From NCBI GenBank assembly GCA_963767315.1, contig CAVYDK010000014.1:45894-109893 (forward strand): 64,000 bases of DNA, in the 5' to 3' direction. The position numbers and the translations under genes were made by a program. Below are positions 22,048 through 32,425 of this stretch, piece after piece; positions within the stretch are counted from its first letter, which is position 1; the number at the start of each line of letters is the position of its first letter. The DNA comes from an uncultured Acidobacteriaceae bacterium (GTDB lineage: Bacteria > Acidobacteriota > Terriglobia > Terriglobales > Acidobacteriaceae). The notes beneath the pieces were generated by a model, which ran no database searches, was not told the origin of the DNA, and worked only from the letters and a program-made list of their open reading frames with translations.

Positions 22048-22854
22048 CTAGCTTTGATGAAATGGTCGAGACTGGCTAACTGTCAGCTTATATGGGGTTG
22101 CCCATGTCTTATAGCTGCTGAAGAGGAGCTGAACGCCAAGGACGAGCAGCCAGACCCAGAGGACAAAACGCAACTGACGGCGCGGAACGCGTGTGCTGAA
22201 GATGGTTCCGGCGATGGCCCCGGCGGCGCCGCCAACAATCAGGTGCGTCAGCAACTCCGGGTTGGAGGCGTGCGAGAACCAATGTGCGCCGCTGCCAATG
22301 AGCGAGACGATAAAGCCAAAGGCAATATCTGTACCGACTACTTGCGCGGGTTCCAAAGCAGTGAGGCTGAGCAGCGCCGCCGAGCCCAGAGCGCCGGCCC
22401 CTGCGGAGGAAAAGCCGACCTCGGCTCCTACCGGAAACATCAGCCACGCCAACCAGGGACTGCGGTCCCGCGGATTCGCGTTCTGCTTCAGCGGACGAAA
22501 CGTAACAAAAATCTGCCAACTTGCCGTCGTCACCAGAATCGTACCCAGAATTGCATTCGTCAGGTTCTGCGAACCGGCGTTCACCAGATGCTTCAGGAAG
22601 AGCGACCCAACAATCACGCCGGGCACACCACCCAGAAGCATGAACCCAAGCGTCCGCCAAGCCACGTTGCGGCGAAGGATTTGCGCCGGCACCAGAATCA
22701 GTTTGACCGCTGTGGCGAACATCAAGCCGATGCCGACGGCAACCGGCGCCGGCACTCCGAGAAACAAAACCAGCACCGGCACGGTGACGGTTCCAGCGCC
22801 AACGCCGGTGAACGCAATAAACAGAGCGATGATGAATCCAATAAGATATTGCAT
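22048..22854 (-). CDS. sulfite exporter TauE/SafE family
   Basis: Multi-TM; GVGAG, GFSSAGAGALG, VVGTDIAF. Confidence 0.88.
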   Translation of the reverse strand: MQYLIGFIIALFIAFTGVGAGTVTVPVLVLFLGVPAPVAVGIGLMFATAVKLILVPAQILRRNVAWRTLGFMLLGGVPGVIVGSLFLKHLVNAGSQNLTNAILGTILVTTASWQIFVTFRPLKQNANPRDRSPWLAWLMFPVGAEVGFSSAGAGALGSAALLSLTALEPAQVVGTDIAFGFIVSLIGSGAHWFSHASNPELLTHLIVGGAAGAIAGTIFSTRVPRRQLRFVLWVWLLVLGVQLLFSSYKTWATPYKLTVSQSRPFHQS

Positions 22855-22884: not shown

Positions 22885-23583
22885 TTATTTCGGCGGCGCT
22901 GCTTCGATGTGAATGCCGCATTCAACCTTGCGGCCGGCCCAACGGCCGGAGCGCGGATCGTTCGGGTCCAGTGGAAGCGTCGTACAAGGCTCGCATCCGA
23001 TGGAGGAGTAGCCGCGTTCATAGAGCGGCAGCAGTGGGATCGACAGTTCTTCGCAGGCGGACCAAACATCGCGCGTCGTCCACGCCGCCAGAGGCGCGAG
23101 CTTAAGCACCTGCCTGCCGCCGGGAAGCGTGAACAGCGCCGACTCTTCGAGGGCCGCCCGGCTCTTTGCCTGCTCACGGCGCAAGCCGGTAATCCACACG
23201 CGATAGCCGGCAACGGCTTTGAAGAGCGGTTCAACCTTGCGCAGCCTGCAGCACTGGTCCGGTGCGGATCGATACAGCAGGCCGTGCTCGGCCTCCTGCT
23301 CGGCGACCGTCTTTTCGGGTAGAAGGTTGATCAAATTGAGTCGCCATTCGCCGGCAATGCGGTCCCGATAGGCATAGGTTTCGGGAAAGTGATAGCCGGT
23401 GTCGAGAAAGAGGATGGGTATCTTTGCATCCAACTCGATCGCCAGCTTCGCAAGCAGTACATCTTCGGCCTGAAAGCTGCATGTGAGGCATACATCCTGA
23501 TTGCCGGTGATTTCGCGCGCCAGCGCGGCGCGCAGCTTGCCCAGTCCGGTCTCCATCCGCCCATGGACTCCCACTGTGCTCAT
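22885..23583 (-). CDS. cysH: APS reductase (CysH, Fe-S type)
   Basis: FLDTGYHFPET, CCRLRKVEPL, SIGCEPCT, ECGIH; start overlaps the upstream stop (TGATG). Confidence 0.92.
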   Translation of the reverse strand: MSTVGVHGRMETGLGKLRAALAREITGNQDVCLTCSFQAEDVLLAKLAIELDAKIPILFLDTGYHFPETYAYRDRIAGEWRLNLINLLPEKTVAEQEAEHGLLYRSAPDQCCRLRKVEPLFKAVAGYRVWITGLRREQAKSRAALEESALFTLPGGRQVLKLAPLAAWTTRDVWSACEELSIPLLPLYERGYSSIGCEPCTTLPLDPNDPRSGRWAGRKVECGIHIEAAPPK

Positions 23584-23910
23584 CACAAACCTGCCTTTTC
23601 CCATGGAATGAAGAACCCTGCGCCGTGCAACAGTTGATGGACGGCAGAGACCGCATGGTTTGGATCGTTCGCGTCGAGAGTAAGCTGCCGGTCTTCTGCG
23701 CGCACCAGGAGCGTTCCGCCTTCGTTCGCGTTCACGACCAGCGCAAGCAGTCCGGATTGGACCTGCAGCCGGATGACGATCTCCAGCAGGCTCGGATGAA
23801 ATAGGAAGGCTTCATCGTCCGCTTCGATGCGGCTGGAAACGACTCCCACGGAAAAGAGCGAACGCTCGATGGAATCGATCAGTTCGACAGGGCCGCTCAG
23901 TTCGAGGACC
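23583..23910 (-). pseudogene. out-of-frame C-terminal (vestigial APS-kinase-like) domain of CysN
   Basis: After GEREARWGHRGA a one-base shift gives VLELSGPVELIDSIERSLFSVGVVSSR...WEKAGL*, ending exactly at the cysH start. Confidence 0.65.
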
Positions 23911-25305
23911 CGCGCCGCGATGGCCCCAGCGCGCTTCCCGTTCGCCGATGGTCACAGGGCCCCACGCGTCCGCGTGGAGACTGCCGGCCGTCGCGCCTCC
24001 GGACGCCGCCGTAATCATGCCCGCTGCAACGGTGCCGTTGGTTTCGGCGTCGACCAGGATGAATGCGCCAGTGCAGCGATTCACGCCGTAGAGGTCCACT
24101 GCGATGGGACGCAGCAGATGCAGCGTGACCACGCCAATGCCGTTCATCTCCAGCGTGTCGGCGGGTTCATGCGTCAGGCTGGCGATATTGGTGCGATGTT
24201 CGATTGCGGAGACGAATGCGGGCACGGTCTGGCTGGTGTGCTTCAGCAGATAGCGGCGATCGCGCTGCAGCGGACGCGCATCCATCCAGACGAGCGCGGC
24301 CTGAAGGCGCTTGGCGACGGTTGCCTGCGTGTGCGTGGAGACGATCAGATCGCCGCGGCCGATGTCGAGCTCGCGATCCAATACCAGCGTGACCGATTGC
24401 GGCGCAACCGCCTCGGCAAGCTCACCATCGAAGGTGACGATGCGCGCAACCTCTGCGTTTTTGCCGGAGGGAAGCACGGTGATCCGATCGCCGGGGCGAA
24501 CCATTCCCGATGCAACCTGACCGGCAAATCCGCGAAAGGCGTGATTGGGACGAAGGACCCGCTGCACGGGAAAGCGGAAAGGCGCAGTGCGCGTATCAAG
24601 CGACGATGGCAGCGACTCAAGAAGCTCAAGCAGTGTTGGACCGTTGTACCATTTCATCGCTTTCGAGCTGTGAACGATGTTGTCGCCGGCGAGAGCGCTG
24701 ACCGGAACGAAACTGACATCGACCGGGTTGCCCGTATCGGCTGCGATGCGATCGAGGACGGAAGTGAAATCCAGTTCGATGGCGCGGAAGGCCGCCTCGT
24801 CGTAGCCAATCAAATCCATCTTGTTGACCGCGACAATCACGTGGCGCACGCGCAGCAACGATGCAATGTAAGCGTGACGGCGCGATTGAATCAGAACGCC
24901 CTTACCGGCGTCGATCAGCACCACCGCCGCATCGGCCGTTGACGCGCCAGTCGCCATGTTGCGCGTGTACTGCTCATGGCCGGGCGTGTCGGCGATGATG
25001 AACTTGCGGCGTGGCGTGGAGAAGTAGCGATAGGCGACATCGATGGTGATGCCCTGCTCGCGCTCCGCGCGCAGCCCGTCGGTGAGCAATGCGAAATCAA
25101 TCTGCCCCGGGGCCGTCGTTCCCTTGCCTTCGATGGAGCGTACCTGATCGTCGTAGACCGACTGCGTGTCGTAGAGCAGTCGGCCGATGAGTGTGGACTT
25201 GCCGTCGTCCACGCTTCCCGCCGTCGAAAAGCGCAGCAAATCCTTTTCGCGCTCCTCGGCAAGATAATCTGCGATCGAGAATGGGAGTGCCGCGAGTGTG
25301 GCCAT
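23812..25305 (-). CDS. cysN: sulfate adenylyltransferase subunit 1 (GTPase)
   Basis: GSVDDGKST, EREQGITIDVAY, DTPGHEQYTRNM, VNKMD. Confidence 0.95.
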   Translation of the reverse strand: MATLAALPFSIADYLAEEREKDLLRFSTAGSVDDGKSTLIGRLLYDTQSVYDDQVRSIEGKGTTAPGQIDFALLTDGLRAEREQGITIDVAYRYFSTPRRKFIIADTPGHEQYTRNMATGASTADAAVVLIDAGKGVLIQSRRHAYIASLLRVRHVIVAVNKMDLIGYDEAAFRAIELDFTSVLDRIAADTGNPVDVSFVPVSALAGDNIVHSSKAMKWYNGPTLLELLESLPSSLDTRTAPFRFPVQRVLRPNHAFRGFAGQVASGMVRPGDRITVLPSGKNAEVARIVTFDGELAEAVAPQSVTLVLDRELDIGRGDLIVSTHTQATVAKRLQAALVWMDARPLQRDRRYLLKHTSQTVPAFVSAIEHRTNIASLTHEPADTLEMNGIGVVTLHLLRPIAVDLYGVNRCTGAFILVDAETNGTVAAGMITAASGGATAGSLHADAWGPVTIGEREARWGHRGAGPRTERPCRTDRFHRAFALFRGSRFQPHRSGR

Positions 25306-26262
25306 TTAGAAGTAGCCCTCCCGCTTCTTGATCTCCATCGAACCTTCCTGGTCGTGATCGATGACACGGTTGGCGCGCTCTGACGAGCGGAAGGAGAGCA
25401 GCTCCGCAATGATGGCGGGAATCGTATCCGCGTCAGACCGAATCGCTCCGGTGCACGGACTGCAACCGAGCGAACGCAGCCGAGACTTGACCATTTGCGG
25501 CTGTTCGCCGGGTAGCGCGACAAAACTCTGCTCCATGGGAAGCAGCGCATCGCCGCGCACATACATGGGGCGCTCCCTGGCAAAGTAGAGATCGACGACC
25601 GGAATCTTTTCCTCATGGATGTATTGCCAGACATCCATCTCCGTCCAGTTGGAGAGCGGAAAGACGCGAATGCTTTCGCCGGGATGGACGCGCGCGTTGT
25701 ACAGGTTCCACAGCTCGGGGCGCTGGTTCTTCGGGTCCCATTGCCCGGCGCTGTCGCGGAAGGAGTAGATGCGTTCCTTGGCGCGGGATTTTTCTTCATC
25801 GCGCCGCGCGCCGCCGAAGGCCGCATCGAAGTTGTAGTGACGCAGGGCGTCGAGCAGGGCCTGCGTCTTCAGCAGTCCGCAGCAGCGCTTGGTGTCCAGC
25901 GCGATGGGATTCGTGCCCGCGGCGATGGCGGCCTCATTGCGCCAGACCAGCAGCTCGACGCCCGCGGAGCGGGCGGTTTCATCGCGGAAGGCGAGCATCT
26001 CGGCGAATTTGAAGCCGGTGTCGACGTGGAGCAAGGGAAAGGGAATCGGCGCGGGGTAGAAGGCCTTCTGCGCCAGCCGCAACATCACGGAGGAATCCTT
26101 GCCGATGGAGTAGAGCATGACGGGACGCTCAAACTCCGAGGCCACTTCGCGCAGGATGTAAATGCTCTCCGCTTCCAGCAGGCGCAGATGGCCCAACCGC
26201 CGCGCAGCGGATGCGCCGGCTGGCAGCGATGCGATCGATGAATCGCTTACGGAGATTGCCAT
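25306..26262 (-). CDS. cysD: sulfate adenylyltransferase subunit 2
   Basis: [43 protein letters not shown]. Confidence 0.96.
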
Positions 26263-26306
26263 GCACGACCTCGTTCAGTGTGGGGATTCCGCTGAAGGCC
26301 AGTGCA
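26262..26306 (-). promoter_or_regulatory. hairpin sequestering the cysD SD and start
   Basis: Minus strand TGCACTGGCCTTCAG-loop-CTGAACGAGGTCGTGCA(TG): ~13-14 bp with bulges, covering GAGG; paired by eye. Confidence 0.6.
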
Positions 26307-26374
26307 ATGGATTCGCACCCGGTCGATCAGCGAGGGGTGCGTCTTCTGATGAATCGCGATTGGGGAATCAGAGA

Positions 26375-26443
26375 CTACTTCATACACCCGTCGAAGATGT
26401 TCGACAGGCGACAACAAGAGCGGCGTTGGGACGCGCGAACCAT
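26375..26443 (-). CDS. Cys-rich leader peptide upstream of cysD (MVRASQRRSCCRLSNIFDGCMK)
   Basis: 22 codons, 3 Cys all TGT, AGGA 8 nt before ATG, ends 112 nt before cysD. Confidence 0.7.
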   Translation of the reverse strand: MVRASQRRSCCRLSNIFDGCMK

Positions 26444-26502
26444 GGGTACGTTCCTGGTGGCATTTCGCCGGGACAATCGGAGCTGGAAGTTCTTATCCAG
26501 AA

Positions 26503-26516
26503 TTGATGCGCATCAA
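26503..26516. promoter_or_regulatory. perfect 14-bp palindrome, candidate operator
   Basis: TTGATGCGCATCAA between tRNA-Cys and the cysD leader. Confidence 0.45.
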
Positions 26517-26538
26517 GCCGGGACCGATTCAATAAAGT

Positions 26539-26614
26539 TGGAGCGCCGGGCGGGAATTGAACCCGCGAATACAGGTTTTGCAGACCTGCGCGTTAGCCGC
26601 TTCGCCACCGGCGC
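26539..26614 (-). tRNA. tRNA-Cys(GCA)
   Basis: GCGCCGG acceptor, CAGGT-CTGCAAA-ACCTG anticodon arm, GTTCAAT T-loop, U73-CCA. Confidence 0.96.
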
Positions 26615-26736
26615 AATTGGAAACTTTTGGTGGATGCCCAAGTCGCATCGCTGGGTCCTGGGGTTGTTTTGCAATCTGCCTCCGGGATTATGGAAGGACG
26701 TAGCGGAGGTCGGCGTAGCCGGCGAAGTCGTGCGCT

Positions 26737-26829
26737 GTCCTCACGGCTCAGCAGCAGATACGGCAGCACAAACGACCACTCCTCGTGCGACACATCGCTC
26801 GGATAGCGAACCCGTCCCTCGTTTCCCAT
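26737..26829 (-). pseudogene. IS5-family transposase N-terminal remnant
   Basis: RYPSDVSHEEWSFVLPYLLLSRED. Confidence 0.7.
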
Positions 26830-26897
26830 CCTTCCATGCTGCGCAGAATACAAGCTCACGCAAAGATTCTACCCAGGTACAGACTTCATAACAGGCT

Positions 26898-29800
26898 CTA
26901 GAAGAGAAGTTTGAGGCCGAGCTGGATCTGGCGTGTGGTGGCGGCGGAGGTGATGACTCCGGCGGTGGGGCTGAGGGCAACGGCGCTGGTCTGGTTGGCG
27001 GCGGTGCCCTGGGTGGGCCCGGCGGAGAAGACTGTCTCGGCCGGAGTGAGCAGGTTGGTGTGGTTGAGGACGTTGAAGAACTCGGCGCGGAACTGCGCGC
27101 GGACTCGCTCGGTGAGCTGCGTGGTCTTGGCCAGCGACAGGTCGAGGTCGTTGTAGCCGGGGCCGGTGAGCGTGTCGCGGCGGAGGTTGCCAACCGTACC
27201 GTAGGCGGGCGCGGAGAAGGCGGCGGGATTGAAGTACTGGGCTACTTTTTGTGCGGTAGTACCCTGGGTGTAGAGCGATCCGGTGAATGCGGGGTTGACG
27301 TTGGGGCGGACGGGGTTTCGCGAGTCGCCGGAGCCGGTGGGGTTATAGCCAAGCTGCGGGCTGAAGGGGAAGCCCGACTCGAGGGTTGCGATGGCGGAGA
27401 GCGTCCAGCCGGAGACGGCGGCGTTGGCGAAAGGCCTGGCGTTGGCCAGCAAGAGATGGTTCTTGCCGAAGGGCAGGTCGTAGCTGGCGTTGATGGAGGC
27501 AAGGTTGCGGATGTCTGTGGCGGCAGGACCCCAGTCGAGCGCGGGATTGTTGGGGTAGGAGACGAAGGCTGGCGTGTTGGCGGAGACGCTGGTGTTCCAT
27601 GCGGAGCCGTCGTCGAGATTACGCGCGTAGGTGTAGTTGGCGCGGAAGGTGAGACCATTGGCCAGCGAGCGGTGGAGATCGACTTCGAGTGCATTGTAGG
27701 AACTCGACCCCTGCGAGACCCAACTTGTGGTGTTGGCGAGCGCGGGGTTGGGCTTGGTGGTCGTCGGGTAGTAGATGATGCCGCCGGGCTGGACGACACT
27801 GGCGGGCTCGTTGAGATCCTCGGAGAGGATATGGTGGGTGCCGTGCGAGCCGACGTAGCCGATGGTGAGCGAAGTCTTCGGTGCGATCTGCTGCTCGACG
27901 CGCAAGGTCCACGCGAAGACAGATGGCGTTGCGATGTCGGGCTGCACTGTGGAGGGTGAGACAGAGGAAGCGCCAGAGGTCGGATTTGCAACACTGCCTG
28001 AAGTCGAGTAGATGGTGTTGAAGGGGGCCGACTGGTCGAGGCGGTAGTCGAGCGTGTCGAGCAGAGCGTGGTGCAGGCCGAAGCTGGCGCGCAGGACTGT
28101 TTTGCCGGTGCTGAACGGATCGTAGGAGAGGCCGAGGCGCGGCTCGGGGAGGAACTTGGCTCGGTTGGTGGTGAGGGAGGAGGAACCGGTGGTGGGGGTT
28201 GAGTTGATGATGCCGCTAGTGAATCCGTAGACCGGCGCGCGACCGTGCGAAGCGTTCCATCCGTCGGTGGATTCTGTGCGCAGGCCGGCGCGGAGTTCGA
28301 GGTTGGGGAAAGTTTTGATGGTGTCTTCAACGTAACCATCGACGAAGGTGCTGCGCCAGCCCAGTTCGGTGGTGGAGGGGACGTAGGTGAAGGTCTTGAT
28401 GGTTCCCTGCAGGAAGGTGGTGAGCGAGGCGAAGCTGGCCTGGCCGTCCTGGTCCTGCGCCAGGTTGTCGTTGGACTCGAGCAGTTGCAGCCAGCCACCG
28501 GCCTCGATCTGCTGGCGTCCGCGCGAGTAGTAGATGTGATCATCAAAAGTAAATAGGTTGCGCGTGGTGCTGTTGTTGGAGCCAACGTTGACGCCCGCCG
28601 TAGTGATGGTGGACGCGCCGTTGGAGGCCGTCGAGCCGGCGATGACGACCGCGCCGGTGGGCTTGCCAACGAGAAAGGTCGGGGTTACGGCTTGAATGTT
28701 GGCGGGAACCGAGCCGAGGAAGAAGAAGCTGGCGCGAGAGAAGCCTGCGCGGGCGGTGTTGAGCAGGCGCGGCGAGAAGACGTGCTGCTCCTGCACGCTC
28801 GCCACCTGCTCGCGCAGATTCTCCTCAACGAGTGAGTAGGGGTCTTGCGTGGGTGTGTGGGCGATGGAGTCGTCGATGGTGTAGACGGCGAAGAGCAGAT
28901 CGTTCGGCGTGAGGTTGGCGTCGAAGCGCGTGGTGCCGAAGTCCTCGCGGATGTGCTGAGTGGGCGAGGAGAATGCCTCGGCGATGCCGGTGGGAAGGCC
29001 GGTGGGAGAGAGGAGTTCAGGGCCGTTCTGCGTTGGCCACAGGTTCAGCAGGCCAGCGACTCCGGCGCCGAGCGTGACGGGTGAGAGTGCGCCGGTGGTC
29101 GCGTTGGGCACCAGGCCGTTGCGTGCGTTCGAGTCGGGCACGAAGGTGACGTTGGAGATGCCGAGGTTCTGGCGATAGCCCTCGTAATTCGCGAAGAGGA
29201 ATAGCTTGTCTGTCTTGATCGGGCCGCCCAGCGATGCTCCGAAGTTGTTGCGCTGGAACTCCGGGATGCGTGCGGGGTCAAAATAATTGCGCGCGTCGAA
29301 AAAGGAGTTGCGCAGGAACTCGTAGATCGATCCATGAACGCTGTTGGTTCCGGAGGCGGTGATGATGGAGACCTGCGCGCCCTGCCGCTTGCCGTAGGCG
29401 GCGGAGTACGTGTCTGTGATGACGTTGAACTCGCGCACGGCCTCGACGCCGAGGAGTTGGCCGCTGGTGCCGCCGGGGGTGACGTTGATGAGCGATGCTC
29501 CGGTGTACTCGACGCCGTTGAGCAGGTAGAGATTGTCCTGCGGGCGGCGGCCACTGACGGCGAACATATTTCCCACCGATGAGTTCGACGTGCCGATGGA
29601 GCCCGAGCGCTGGGCGGTGTAGTTGACGGTGGCGGGGTTCAGGGTGATGAGCTGGTCGTAGCTGCGTCCGTTGAGGGGGAGTTCCTTGATCTGGTGCGCG
29701 TCGATCAGGCCGGCAGTCTGCTGCGTGGAGAGGTTGACGACAGGGGACTCGTCGTTGACAGTGACGGTCTGCACGACTCCGGTGAGCGGGAGCGTGAGGT

Positions 29801-30110
29801 TGACGCTCTGCGACTGGCCGACCGAGAGCGCGATTCCGGTGCGGCGCTGCTGGCTGAAACCGGTGGCGTCGGCGGTGATGGTGTAGCTGCCGACCGGGAT
29901 GGACGGCGCGGCGTAGCGGCCATCAGGGCCGGTCTGGAGATGACGCTCGTTGCCCGTCTCATCGTTGTGGACGAGGACGGCGGCGTTGGCGATGGCTGCG
30001 CCGGTGGAGTCGGTAATGGTGCCGGAGATGGTGCCGCCGACGACCTGCGCGGGAGCGAGTTGCACAGCCAGGCCGAAGACCAGAATCATTCCAATCAATT
30101 TGCGTACCAT
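26898..30110 (-). CDS. TonB-dependent receptor inside the sulfate-assimilation cluster
   Basis: GTITDSTGAAI, LPLNGRSY, VHGSIYEFLRN, RQIQLGLKLLF; SD AGGAG before ATG at 30110. Confidence 0.92.
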   Translation of the reverse strand: MVRKLIGMILVFGLAVQLAPAQVVGGTISGTITDSTGAAIANAAVLVHNDETGNERHLQTGPDGRYAAPSIPVGSYTITADATGFSQQRRTGIALSVGQSQSVNLTLPLTGVVQTVTVNDESPVVNLSTQQTAGLIDAHQIKELPLNGRSYDQLITLNPATVNYTAQRSGSIGTSNSSVGNMFAVSGRRPQDNLYLLNGVEYTGASLINVTPGGTSGQLLGVEAVREFNVITDTYSAAYGKRQGAQVSIITASGTNSVHGSIYEFLRNSFFDARNYFDPARIPEFQRNNFGASLGGPIKTDKLFLFANYEGYRQNLGISNVTFVPDSNARNGLVPNATTGALSPVTLGAGVAGLLNLWPTQNGPELLSPTGLPTGIAEAFSSPTQHIREDFGTTRFDANLTPNDLLFAVYTIDDSIAHTPTQDPYSLVEENLREQVASVQEQHVFSPRLLNTARAGFSRASFFFLGSVPANIQAVTPTFLVGKPTGAVVIAGSTASNGASTITTAGVNVGSNNSTTRNLFTFDDHIYYSRGRQQIEAGGWLQLLESNDNLAQDQDGQASFASLTTFLQGTIKTFTYVPSTTELGWRSTFVDGYVEDTIKTFPNLELRAGLRTESTDGWNASHGRAPVYGFTSGIINSTPTTGSSSLTTNRAKFLPEPRLGLSYDPFSTGKTVLRASFGLHHALLDTLDYRLDQSAPFNTIYSTSGSVANPTSGASSVSPSTVQPDIATPSVFAWTLRVEQQIAPKTSLTIGYVGSHGTHHILSEDLNEPASVVQPGGIIYYPTTTKPNPALANTTSWVSQGSSSYNALEVDLHRSLANGLTFRANYTYARNLDDGSAWNTSVSANTPAFVSYPNNPALDWGPAATDIRNLASINASYDLPFGKNHLLLANARPFANAAVSGWTLSAIATLESGFPFSPQLGYNPTGSGDSRNPVRPNVNPAFTGSLYTQGTTAQKVAQYFNPAAFSAPAYGTVGNLRRDTLTGPGYNDLDLSLAKTTQLTERVRAQFRAEFFNVLNHTNLLTPAETVFSAGPTQGTAANQTSAVALSPTAGVITSAATTRQIQLGLKLLF

Positions 30111-30215
30111 GGCAGTCTCCTGTATGCAGTCCATCCGCGTTCGCCGTCCATGGGGATGGCGCCAGACCGGATGATGCATTCCGTTTGATTTTTGTTTTGT
30201 TTACCGCGTGAGAAT

Positions 30216-30335
30216 TCAACCGCGAAGGGCTGGCGCGCGAGATCGACAGGCACAACAATGCGCTCTTCCCGGCCGGCTCAGCGCGCGGGCGAAGCTTGCA
30301 AACAAGGGTGCGGAGATCGGGGTATACACGGGCAT
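30216..30335 (-). CDS. Cys-rich leader peptide upstream of the TonB receptor (...RPGRAHCCACRSRAPALRG)
   Basis: CAT TGT TGT GCC TGT CGA; stop 105 nt before the receptor ATG; start uncertain (ATG 30335, or in-frame GTG/TTG downstream). Confidence 0.6.
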   Translation of the reverse strand: MPVYTPISAPLFASFARALSRPGRAHCCACRSRAPALRG

Positions 30336-30441
30336 CCTGGACTCGGTGGACCTACGAAGTGCGTTTGTATGGGGAAAGACAAAATCGCGGACAGGCCAGC
30401 GGGCGCTAGCGCAGACAGCAACAACACGCGAATTTGATAAA

Positions 30442-30466
30442 GAAGTTTTGCATCTGAAAAAACTTC
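30442..30466. promoter_or_regulatory. inverted repeat in the divergent promoter region
   Basis: GAAGTTTT-N9-AAAACTTC. Confidence 0.4.
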
Positions 30467-30544
30467 CTGACTGGCACAGTCTAGCGAAGATTGGAATTCC
30501 TGTCCAGCGACCCGCCGATTTTTTTTTTGCGCGCCGCGGGCAAC

Positions 30545-30573
30545 TTGACTTTCGCCCGGGCTGCACCTACTGT
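30545..30573 (+). promoter_or_regulatory. sigma70-type promoter predicting a leaderless transcript
   Basis: TTGACT-17 bp-TACTGT, then 6 nt to the ATG at 30580. Confidence 0.75.
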
Positions 30574-30579
30574 CTACTT

Positions 30580-30633
30580 ATGGAAGGTCAGCTCTGTTGT
30601 CGCCGCTGTTCACAGCCTCGCGCGGACAGATGA
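30580..30633 (+). CDS. Cys-rich leader peptide upstream of sir (MEGQLCCRRCSQPRADR)
   Basis: 17 codons, 3 Cys all TGT, ATG at the predicted +1, ends 94 nt before sir. Confidence 0.78.
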   Translation: MEGQLCCRRCSQPRADR

Positions 30634-30673
30634 CCTGGGTCTAAAGTTCAGATCGAAATCCCGGTTTTCAGAT

Positions 30674-30711
30674 ACCCGCGAAGCAGCCGTTGCTGTCGCG
30701 GGTTTTCTGTT
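30674..30711 (+). terminator. attenuator-like intrinsic terminator between the leader and sir
   Basis: ACCCGCGA-AG-CAGC-CGTT-GCTG-TCGCGGGT followed by TTTCTGTT. Confidence 0.65.
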
Positions 30712-30727
30712 CCAGGCGAGGGATAAT

Positions 30728-32425
30728 ATGACGGAAGCAATCCAGAAGAAAGAGACCAAGGCGCAACAGGCGGAACGCTTGAAGCGCGAAAAGAACCCCT
30801 GGGAAGCCTTCGATGAGGTGCGCGCCTTTGCGCGCCAGGGCCGCGCCAGCGTGTTGCCCGACTGGGCTTCCAGTTATTTCAAATGGTGGGGCGTCTACAC
30901 CCAGGGCGACGGCGTGGGAGCTACCGGCGGCAAAGGCGGCGAGGGCCTGGCCTCTGAATTCTTCATGATGCGCATCGGCATTCCCAACGGCATCGTCACC
31001 GCCGGCCAGCTTCGCGTCATCGGCGGATTGGCGCGCAAATACGCCCGCAACCTTGCCGACATCACCGTGCGCCAGAATATTCAGCTTCACTGGCTTACCA
31101 TCGAGTCGCTCCCCGAGGTTGTGGATGCGCTGGACGCCATCGGGCTTTCGCCCAAGGGGGCCTGCGGCGATGTGGTGCGCAATGTGACCGGCTGCCCGCT
31201 GGCCGGAGTCGCCGCCGATGAGTTGATCGACGCCTCCCCGCTCGCCCTGCAGATCGCGCGCCTGCTGACGGCGAATCCGGAGTTCTACAACCTGCCGCGC
31301 AAATTCAAAATCTCCGTCACCGGCTGCCCCTCCTGGTGCACACACCCGGAGATCAACGACATTGCCCTCACTGCAACCGAAAACAACGGCCAGATCGGTT
31401 ACTCGCTGCGCGTCGGCGGCGGCCTCTCCAAGGAACCGCATCTTGCCGTTCGTCTCAATGCCTTCATTCTCCCCGATCAGGCGGTCCGCGTTGCGCGCGC
31501 CATAGCTGAAATCTTTCGCGATCAGCAGGGCCTACGGGAAAACCGCAGCCAGGCCCGCATGAAGTATCTCTTTCTGAAAGAAGGCTGGACCGCCGAGAGT
31601 TTTCTTGCAGAACTGCAGTCGCGACTCGACTTCACGCTGTTGCCCGGCGTGCCCGAGCAGGTTCCCGAGGACATCTTCCGCGACCATGCGGGCATTCATC
31701 CGCAGCGCCAGCCCGGCTTGAGCTACGTTGGTGCATCGGTCCTGCGCGGCCGGATGAGCGGCGAGCAGTTGGAAGCCGCCGCCGAACTTGCCGAGCGCTT
31801 CGGAAGCGGAGCGTTGCGCGCAACTGTCTCGCAAAACCTGCTCTTCATCGACATTCCCAACCGCAAGACAGCCGAATTAGCGCGGGAACTTGGGCAGATC
31901 GGCCTTCATGTCGATGGTTCGTCTTTTTGGCGCGGCGCGGTCGCCTGCACCGGCACTGAGTTTTGCAAGCTGGCCATCACGGAAACCAAGGGCTTTACAC
32001 GCTGGATCGTGGATGAGCTCGAAGAGCGGCTGCCCGCGTTCGACCAGCAGCTCCGGCTGCACGTCACCGGCTGCCCCAATAGCTGCGGACAGCACTGGAT
32101 CGCCGACATCGGCATCGAGGGCAAAAAAATCAAGCACGAGGGCAAGCTCACCGACGCTTATTACTTCTGCCTCGGCGGAGCGGTGGGCCGGCACGCTTCC
32201 ATCGCGCGCCCGGTAGGCTATCGCTGCCCCGCGCCGCTGGTGCCTGAAGCGATCGAGCGTCTGCTCCGCCACTACCTCGCCAGCCGCCTGCCTGAAGAGA
32301 ACCTGCGCACCTGGTTCTTGCGCCACACGAACGATGAGCTGCGCGCCGATTTGGCGGGTGAGGTTTTGCCGCCGGTCGAGCGCGACCTGCCCGCGGGCCG
32401 CGTGCCCCACGGCATCGCCGATTGA
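30728..32425 (+). CDS. sir: nitrite/sulfite reductase (siroheme, ferredoxin-type), likely sulfite reductase
   Basis: ACGDVVRNV, NLPRKFKI, ACTGTEFCKLA...VTGCPNSCGQH siroheme/Fe-S motif; cys context. Confidence 0.9.
   Translation: MTEAIQKKETKAQQAERLKREKNPWEAFDEVRAFARQGRASVLPDWASSYFKWWGVYTQGDGVGATGGKGGEGLASEFFMMRIGIPNGIVTAGQLRVIGGLARKYARNLADITVRQNIQLHWLTIESLPEVVDALDAIGLSPKGACGDVVRNVTGCPLAGVAADELIDASPLALQIARLLTANPEFYNLPRKFKISVTGCPSWCTHPEINDIALTATENNGQIGYSLRVGGGLSKEPHLAVRLNAFILPDQAVRVARAIAEIFRDQQGLRENRSQARMKYLFLKEGWTAESFLAELQSRLDFTLLPGVPEQVPEDIFRDHAGIHPQRQPGLSYVGASVLRGRMSGEQLEAAAELAERFGSGALRATVSQNLLFIDIPNRKTAELARELGQIGLHVDGSSFWRGAVACTGTEFCKLAITETKGFTRWIVDELEERLPAFDQQLRLHVTGCPNSCGQHWIADIGIEGKKIKHEGKLTDAYYFCLGGAVGRHASIARPVGYRCPAPLVPEAIERLLRHYLASRLPEENLRTWFLRHTNDELRADLAGEVLPPVERDLPAGRVPHGIAD

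Follow-up and report, generated by a model that had tools for sequence, protein, structure and literature searches.

A leader upstream of the sulfate-assimilation operon cysDN(H), in a 64,000-nucleotide stretch of DNA from an uncultured Acidobacteriaceae bacterium (referred to as the window), is very probably a cysteine-sensing leader-peptide attenuator. It combines a short upstream open reading frame (uORF) carrying two adjacent cysteine codons with a chain of competing RNA helices that extends to the start codon of cysD. The output of this sensor is a separate matter: folding models lead us to propose, at roughly even chances of being right, that in the window it is the initiation of cysD translation, set by competition between the last two helices of the chain (called 4:5 and 5:6 below). 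All leader features and cysD itself (26262..25306, 318 amino acids, sulfate adenylyltransferase subunit 2) lie on the minus strand.

The uORF (26443..26375) consists of 22 codons plus a TAG stop and would encode MVRASQRRSCCRLSNIFDGCMK, as read from the sequence. An AGGA, its candidate Shine-Dalgarno sequence (SD), lies at 26455..26452, 8 nucleotides (nt) before the uORF ATG; both the 22-codon frame and the AGGA had been pointed out in the initial annotation of this DNA and both are present. The predicted peptide is enriched in the pathway's end product, with Cys10, Cys11 and Cys20 encoded upstream of cysD-cysN. Cys10 and Cys11 form the putative sensor, TGTTGT (UGU UGU, 26416..26411), and all three cysteine codons are UGU, which is the rare cysteine codon here, since TGC outnumbers TGT by 23 to 2 in six real genes of the window.

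Homologues of the leader were sought by two routes. About 100 loci were gathered by CysD searches in relatives and in species-representative genomes, and in 17 of them the leader is plainly homologous, its peptide following the pattern M-x8-CC(R/C)LS-x3-DGC-xx-stop; TGTTGT is invariant among these 17. Of 401 family genomes sampled, 10 contain the nucleotide motif TGTTGTNGCCTGTCG-N6-10-CGAYGGGTG, each in a single copy, and the reversed pattern, used as a control, gave no match; the motif is present in at least 120 metagenome contigs as well and, where the flank sufficed, always lies upstream of cysD. After deduplication, 116 scorable leaders from Acidobacteriaceae genomes and peat or soil metagenomes remained; identity among 79 of these is below 82%. 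In these 116 homologues the uORF keeps its frame, its 22 codons, its cysteine codons and its stop, the helix arms are kept as well, and the arms of the first hairpin are invariant even at third codon positions, while the N-terminal residues vary freely. This combination argues for an RNA element with a codon sensor rather than a functional peptide. The original proposal of a cysteine-sensing uORF is thus strongly supported by the 116 homologous leaders, together with analogous Cys-rich uORFs before cysD in other Acidobacteriota. An Rfam 15 scan of 24000..29000 in the window, with E up to 10, returned no match to the leader, so that T-box, amino-acid leader and riboswitch identities were rejected; the tRNA-Cys gene alone was matched (three overlapping matches, two of them below the gathering score).

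The leader can be divided into six pairing regions. Region 1 (CGCCUGUCGAA, 26410..26400) starts directly after the cysteine codons and is the 5' arm of hairpin P1, whose 3' arm is region 2 (UUCGACGGGUGU, 26395..26384). The GTCGAA-CATC-TTCGAC hairpin described earlier just after the cysteine pair is the core of P1, which extends to CGCCUGUCGAA/UUCGACGGGUG (26410..26384, -16.2 kcal/mol). Region 2 ends 6 nt before the UAG, a placement that lets a terminating ribosome mask it, and it has region 3 as its alternative partner, acting as an anti-3:4 element. At the G of the TAG stop begins a second hairpin, P2 (GUCUCUGAU ... AUCAGAAGAC, 26375..26341), with a C-rich loop and with outer pairs that are 90% canonical in the family. 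Region 3 (CGCACCCCUCG, 26341..26331) can pair with region 2 (through CGACGGGUGU) or with region 4 (through CCGGGUGCG), since both competitors carry a G-rich core, CGGGU(G), that fits the C-rich core (C)ACCC(G) of region 3. Region 4 (GCUGAUCGACCGGGUGCG, 26331..26314) closes the 3:4 helix with its 3' part, GGGUGCG, giving the CGCACCC/GGGUGCG stem of the initial annotation (26341..26314, -13.3 kcal/mol), and as a whole it pairs with region 5.

Region 5 (UUGCACUGGCCUUCAGCG, 26307..26290) includes CCGGCCUUCAGC, one of the best-conserved parts of the leader, and pairs either with region 4, leaving the cysD SD open, or with region 6, closing it. Region 6 (CUGAACGAGGUCGUGCA, 26278..26262) holds the cysD SD, GAGG, and the A of its ATG. 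The stem said to cover these elements does exist: UGCAC-GGCC-UUCAG pairs with CUGAA-GGUC-GUGCA over 26305..26262 at -16.5 kcal/mol, engaging the last two G of the GAGG (26272..26269) and the A of the cysD ATG (26262). The partner of the SD is therefore region 5 (26290..26307), not the cysteine codons. Region 4 (GCUGA..CCGG..GUGC) and region 6 (CUGAA..GGUC..GUGCA) are both complementary to region 5, and the family consensus repeats this arrangement, with GCUGAA-nn-GCCGG in region 4, CUGAAG-SD-AUGCCGG in region 6 and CCGGC-c-UUCAGC in region 5. In the window the 3:4, 4:5 and 5:6 hairpins have energies of -13.3, -18.9 and -16.5 kcal/mol and the 2:3 duplex -11.1 kcal/mol, and the 301-nt leader folds better than shuffled sequences (z -2.3). 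Two intermediate elements had previously been overlooked, the rivalry between regions 2 and 4 over region 3 and the strong 4:5 hairpin; without the latter, no signal could pass from the uORF to the SD. A long-range UGUUG:CAGCG contact predicted by RNAalifold was discarded as too weak, as two of its five pairs are G-U.

We propose the following course of events. When cysteine is plentiful, the ribosome would reach the UAG and cover region 2; after its release P1 (1:2) would reform, region 3 would pair with region 4 and region 5 with region 6, and the cysD ribosome-binding site (RBS) would be closed. In this closed state the untranslated, C-rich leader and cysD RNA may additionally be shortened by Rho. 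When Cys-tRNA is scarce, a stalled ribosome, its A site at UGU10 or UGU11, would cover region 1, region 2 would capture the nascent region 3, and region 4, left free, would pair with the emerging region 5, so that region 6 stays single-stranded and cysD is translated.

The complementarity that this scheme needs is a property of the family. Duplex energies with natural partners exceed those with dinucleotide-shuffled partners for all four helices: -13.3 versus -8.8 kcal/mol for 2:3, -11.9 versus -7.3 for 3:4, -17.1 versus -9.4 for 4:5 and -12.8 versus -9.7 for 5:6. As isolated hairpins, 3:4, 4:5 and 5:6 average -13.3, -18.4 and -14.1 kcal/mol across the family, and 4:5 is more stable than 5:6 in 83%. 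Pairing between CCGGC of region 5 and the start-codon-adjacent GCCGG is canonical in a fraction of 0.907, above all 500 column shuffles and with 20 double-change cells, and pairing between GCUGAA of region 4 and UUCAGC of region 5 in a fraction of 0.887, again above all shuffles and with 12 double-change cells. Clear compensatory changes occur in three leaders (L124, L140 and L030). A de novo mutual-information scan over all column pairs was uninformative, being swamped by clade-specific differences.

We modelled the ribosome as a 29-nt footprint with the A site at Cys10, Cys11 or the stop, and enforced the helices as explicit pairs in ViennaRNA. The upstream part of the switch responds clearly in these models. 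With region 1 of the window masked by a ribosome at Cys11, 3:4 drops in probability from 0.99 to 0.04 and 2:3 goes up from 0.00 to 0.96; a footprint at the stop leaves the two helices at 0.99 and 0.00, respectively. Across the family, a ribosome at the cysteine codons lowers 3:4 from 0.60 to 0.33 and raises 2:3 from 0.09 to 0.56. The RBS is also affected: in 77% of leaders, a ribosome at the cysteine codons leaves it with a lower opening energy than one at the stop does, the mean difference being 1.85 kcal/mol. For the window, this energy amounts to 12.4 kcal/mol for the free RNA, 8.35 with the A site at Cys10 and 12.2 with the A site at Cys11. The RBS is occluded somewhat more by its natural upstream sequence than by a shuffled one, with opening energies of 8.5 kcal/mol for natural versus 6.7 for upstream-shuffled family leaders and values above the shuffle mean in 73% of leaders. 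The window gave 13.6 kcal/mol in this comparison, above all 8 of its upstream-shuffled controls.

The energies of the complete folds place the SD-freeing structure in the same range as the closed ones only under a stalled ribosome. In the free window RNA, the open fold (2:3+4:5) has -65.5 kcal/mol, the mixed fold (2:3+5:6) -68.5, the closed fold (3:4+5:6) -72.4 and 4:5 alone -68.8, so that SD-open folding is 3.6-6.9 kcal/mol less stable than the closed state. With the A site at Cys10 the open, mixed and closed folds have -55.8, -55.5 and -52.8 kcal/mol, and with the A site at Cys11 -49.5, -50.7 and -50.1 kcal/mol. The models thus predict an SD-freeing fold that becomes competitive only with a ribosome on the cysteine codons, where it is about equal to its rivals and not dominant.

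Several points weigh against control of cysD initiation by this switch. First, the modelled ribosome position hardly affects the equilibrium probability of an unpaired SD: the family values are 0.21, 0.22 and 0.20, and the window value is 0.24 in each case. As SD accessibility in full-length leaders is unchanged under four ribosome positions, we claim no thermodynamic SD switch. Across 74 family members with enforced helices, masking region 1 narrows the gap between the open and the best closed fold from 6.45 to 3.7 kcal/mol, so the open fold is still the less stable one on average, and it wins in 22%. Second, transcripts truncated after region 5 prefer 4:5 over 3:4 in every ribosome state; the truncation test is thus unable to separate ON from OFF, and the OFF path would depend on kinetics as well. 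Third, covariation is weak and sparse because the helix arms are nearly invariant, the family sequences are related, so that the shuffle tests and Wilcoxon p-values overstate the support, and the 5b:6a pairing is not scorable on the alignment. Fourth, by a relaxed criterion, a hairpin with a U-rich tail is found at 3:4 in 38 of the 116 family leaders (8.6 expected), implying that the ancestral output may have been transcriptional. Finally, the window's own promoter looks crippled, and the metatranscriptome contigs of relatives are short fragments of 92-97% identity, of which one adapter-joined end, at 26470, is usable.

Since the closed folds equal or exceed the open fold in equilibrium stability, the last step of the proposed mechanism must be kinetic, through the order of transcription and the trapping of the open site by the 30S subunit. 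A kinetic argument for the ON state would be that region 3 is already held by region 2 when region 4 is made, so that 4:5 should form first. The initial annotation had placed control at translation initiation, or alternatively at a Rho-dependent step, and had suggested comparing footprints at Cys10-11 and at the stop. That comparison yields the SD-freeing fold, and initiation control is plausible on this ground; what it does not yield is an SD freed at equilibrium, and Rho polarity is the main rival.

According to this rival, which we think unlikely although it is the strongest of the alternatives, the cysteine sensor (2:3 versus 3:4) is the same but the regulated step is Rho-dependent termination. 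Release of the ribosome at the UAG would expose the C-rich untranslated spacer, and termination would follow in the leader or in early cysD; a stalled ribosome or the refolding it causes would hide the loading site, or translation of cysD would block Rho. The absence of a U-tract in the window is in line with this possibility, and so is the composition of the spacer between the uORF stop and the SD, which has 36% C against 21% G in the window (33% against 21% for the family) and includes one 40-nt segment with 16 C and 7 G. Rho was also the proposal of Seliverstov et al. 2005 (PMC1262725) for terminator-less actinobacterial cysteine leaders. An occluded RBS is compatible with Rho as well, because untranslated cysD RNA would be a Rho substrate. 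On the other hand, the spacer is predicted to be mostly base-paired, in P2, 3:4 and 5:6, which makes it poor for Rho loading; the conserved complementary regions 4a and 5 and the start-codon-adjacent GCCGG would be left unexplained; and in the comparable mycobacterial case control was found to act at the RBS.

Far less probable for the window is classical transcription attenuation, in which 3:4, though lacking a good U-tract, would be an intrinsic terminator or strong pause site, as it seems to be in relatives, and 4:5 and 5:6 would be secondary. The layout of 1:2, 2:3 and 3:4 with a stop over region 2 is the plan of a trp- or his-type attenuator, and, besides the 38 family leaders mentioned above, 19 of 31 non-family Cys-uORF leaders have a hairpin with a U-rich tail (5.6 expected), such as the textbook ACCCACGC..GCGTGGGT TTTTCGTCTT of the non-family leader L009. 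The 3:4 stem of the window is instead followed by AAUCCAUU, with only 2 U in the 8 nt after the G-run of region 4. As had been noted at the outset, the leader in the window has no U-tract terminator: a terminator scan of 26100..27000 finds no site, and a terminator-like site is found by neither of two scans. Across the family the number of U in those 8 nt ranges from 0 to 7 and is at most 3 in 40 of 116 leaders, so the U-tract is not conserved, and the U-rich tails pair with an upstream AGAC as the outer part of the 3:4 stem. The family may be changing over from transcriptional to translational output. A correlation between U-richness after region 4 and RBS occlusion, which would have marked a compensating move from terminator to RBS control, is absent (Spearman -0.02).

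Expression of the uORF seems to differ between the window and most of its relatives. Of 117 family members, 102 have an extended -10 element, TGnTAnnnT, whose end is 9-11 nt upstream of the ATG (exactly 10 nt in 87), and an SD-like 4-mer precedes the uORF in only 7 of the 117. From the position of the -10 element and the rarity of the SD, the 5' untranslated region (UTR) of most family members is predicted to be about 0-4 nt long, which is near-leaderless. In an ungapped alignment with tRNA-Cys-linked relatives, the corresponding site of the window (26454..26462) is a degenerate TGCCACCAG (TGgTACTAT in close relatives). The window and its near-twin L185, a metagenome contig, share TGCCACCAG, have lost both T that the relatives keep, and carry the AGGA 8 nt before the ATG. 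Comparison at the -10 position with the relatives L142, L224, L097, L025 and L026 shows that the same substitutions that degrade the -10 element create the AGGA. It looks as though, in the window lineage, a promoter was lost and an SD gained in one stretch. The leader of this lineage may then be transcribed from upstream, possibly together with the tRNA-Cys gene. A scan of 26100..27000 found no promoter-like site. A 130-nt metatranscriptome contig of a window-like strain spans the uORF and 27 nt upstream of it, up to an adapter junction at 26470, and agrees with a longer 5' UTR, though as weak evidence.

The degenerate -10 element, a change common to the window and the near-identical L185 and hence fixed in a lineage, and the empty promoter scan could also mean that the leader is a relic in this genome, its uORF poorly expressed and cysDN controlled otherwise, by a protein regulator or by tRNA-Cys read-through without cysteine sensing, or, in a variant, that the conserved RNA binds a protein or ligand instead of sensing translation, but we hold this to be the least probable alternative: sensor and helix elements are all intact in both the window and L185, the AGGA is correctly spaced, the contig just described covers the uORF (weak evidence, again), no Rfam family matches, and the invariant cysteine codons, fixed frame and fixed stop are hard to explain without translation.

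The first gene of the presumed regulated unit, cysD (Pfam PAPS_reduct, 8.7e-50), is directly followed by cysN (25305..23812, minus strand), an EF-Tu-type GTPase (GTP_EFTU, 7.2e-43). Further downstream on the same strand are, at 23604..22885, a cysH-like gene for a phosphoadenylylsulfate/adenylylsulfate (PAPS/APS) reductase and, at 22854..22048, one for a TauE-type sulfite exporter. Between cysN and the cysH-like gene, all 207 nt can be read through in one frame, giving an 88-amino-acid ORF with a GTG start (23583..23849, minus strand, …LLEIVIRLQVQSGLLALVVNANEGG…), and a small unannotated protein may be encoded there inside the cysDN operon.

On the other side of the leader, a tRNA-Cys(GCA) gene (26614..26539, minus strand; found by ARAGORN, Rfam tRNA 66.4 bits) ends 95 nt upstream of the uORF ATG. 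A tRNA-Cys gene has the same place in 9 of 110 homologous leaders, and we regard it as context and as a possible source of read-through transcription into the leader. The genome, of about 3 Mb and 92% complete, has 45 tRNA genes, three of which are tRNA-Cys(GCA): C14:31552-31626, C14:72432-72507 (equal to 26539..26614 of the window) and C17:158607-158682, the last two being close paralogues. No cysteine leader adjoins either of the genome's other two tRNA-Cys genes. A perfect 14-nt palindrome, TTGATGCGCATCAA, lies at 26503..26516 (minus strand), 22 nt past the 3' end of the window tRNA-Cys, and is followed by TTCTGG; its core, ATGCGCAT, is common only to the window, L185 and L025. The palindrome may serve as a weak terminator of the tRNA or bind a protein.

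Cys-rich uORFs are not confined to this leader family. In other Acidobacteriota, 31 non-homologous cysD leaders carry them, for example MHFSTANTACRLCRNFCCCMPCPCVRACCR and MVSPIICACCCCRMVFARCPR, so that such uORFs before cysD appear to be a recurrent solution in the phylum. Some of these non-homologous leaders are plainly classical terminator-type attenuators. Nine of them (L005-L009, L020, L050, L052 and L069) have 5-9 cysteine codons and a terminator stem, GCCCAC...GTGGGT, that is conserved and leads into TTTTCT, and the GTGGGTG inside their uORFs can act as an anti-terminator against the CCCAC.

Within the window, four Cys-rich uORFs lie within 4 kb, the cysD leader included. Two stand in tandem before the gene of a TonB-type receptor (26898..30179, minus strand): MQNFFIKFACCCCLR, with four consecutive cysteine codons (30453..30406, minus strand), and ...AHCCACRSRAPALRG / ...RAHCCACRSRAPALRG (30335..30216, minus strand). 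The second of these receptor uORFs shares UGUUGU-GCCUGUCG with the cysD leader, and these are the sole two copies in the genome. The fourth, a Cys-rich uORF of 17 codons, MEGQLCCRRCSQPRADR (30580..30633, plus strand), precedes a sulfite reductase gene, sir; as it lies inside a listed 644-amino-acid ORF with a TTG start (30491..32425), the true sir start must lie further downstream. A genome-wide search for Cys-rich uORFs before long ORFs was too noisy at 63% GC, with its many spurious ORFs, and missed the cysD leader itself, and we claim no regulon size.

Taken together, these observations can be joined into one broader picture, which we offer tentatively and consider doubtful as a whole. The leader would be a kinetically controlled relay of six segments (1:2, 2:3, 3:4, 4:5, 5:6) that carries the signal over about 150 nt to the cysD start, with region 4 mimicking both region 2 and the RBS; its output would have moved within the family from an intrinsic terminator, which about a third of the members and sister leaders still show, to RBS occlusion; the window lineage would have lost its promoter and become linked to the very tRNA-Cys that decodes the sensor codons; and, together with the uORFs of the TonB-type receptor and sulfite reductase genes, it would belong to an acidobacterial cysteine regulon operated by ribosomes.

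Few groups of soil bacteria are as abundant as the Acidobacteriota, and gene regulation in them is almost unstudied. If our proposal is right, the leader defines a cis-regulatory RNA family of sulfate assimilation with more than 100 members and without a curated Rfam model, and adds a further group to Actinobacteria and Rhodobacterales, in which stalled ribosomes sense cysteine. A natural series in which one sensor is joined to a terminator or to an occluded RBS would become available too, and could be used to ask how attenuators change their output. For annotation, an unannotated 22-codon ORF marks cysDN, and such leaders would also be suited to synthetic amino-acid-responsive switches. A full-text literature search found no report of attenuation by a cysteine leader in Acidobacteria, although its coverage was limited and absence is not proof.

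The closest parallel is found in Mycobacterium smegmatis, where Canestrari et al. 2020 (10.1101/834739; Mol Microbiol 114:93) showed experimentally that leaderless polycysteine small ORFs attenuate cysteine genes by SD occlusion. Like Ms5788A and the 'Cys ribulon' of mycobacteria, the leader described here has a short uORF with at least two consecutive cysteine codons upstream of cysteine or sulfur genes, needs no obligatory intrinsic terminator, and is predicted to sequester the RBS in a pairing that a stalled ribosome relieves. Several cysteine leaders occur per genome in both cases, and most members of the Acidobacteriota family appear near-leaderless. The two systems differ in that the cysteine codons of Ms5788A pair with the SD region, whereas here they are unpaired; homology is lacking, the phylum is another one, and the signal would have to run along about 150 nt by way of three competing helices, one after another (2:3 against 3:4, then 4:5 against 5:6). 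With its AGGA and degenerate -10 element, the window copy also departs from the mycobacterial leaderless start.

Two other groups of leaders share parts of the design. As in trpL, hisL, thrL, leuL and pheL of E. coli and Salmonella, the uORF is built on codons for the end product, the helices 1:2, 2:3 and 3:4 exclude each other, a ribosome at the stop covers region 2, and transcription must be coupled to translation. The classical enterobacterial attenuators do not include one for cysteine, and, unlike in the trpL type, 3:4 of the window has no U-tract, the switch reaches on to the SD and start codon through two more conserved segments, regions 5 and 6, and only two adjacent codons serve as the sensor. 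With ermC and cat the leader has in common that the output would be SD accessibility, set by alternative hairpins and triggered by a ribosome stalled on the leader ORF; there, however, an antibiotic and the nascent peptide cause the stall and four segments are involved, whereas here it would be the lack of charged tRNA and six segments.

Cysteine leaders of other phyla complete the comparison. Brewer et al. 2021 (PMC8632094) described uORFC-8-2, a terminator-bearing uORF with a Cys-Cys pair that precedes cysS in Rhodobacterales, and Seliverstov et al. 2005, cited above, predicted terminator-less cysteine leader peptides without conserved hairpins in Actinobacteria. With both, the window leader shares tandem cysteine codons, a conserved uORF and a cysteine-related gene downstream. 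It is homologous to neither. uORFC-8-2 has its cysteine codons inside the first stem, a U-run terminator and cysS as its target; the actinobacterial leaders resemble the window leader in having no obvious terminators. Since the leader works like known systems, yet is non-homologous to them, belongs to another phylum and uses a longer chain of helices, we count it as a variation on a known type of switch.

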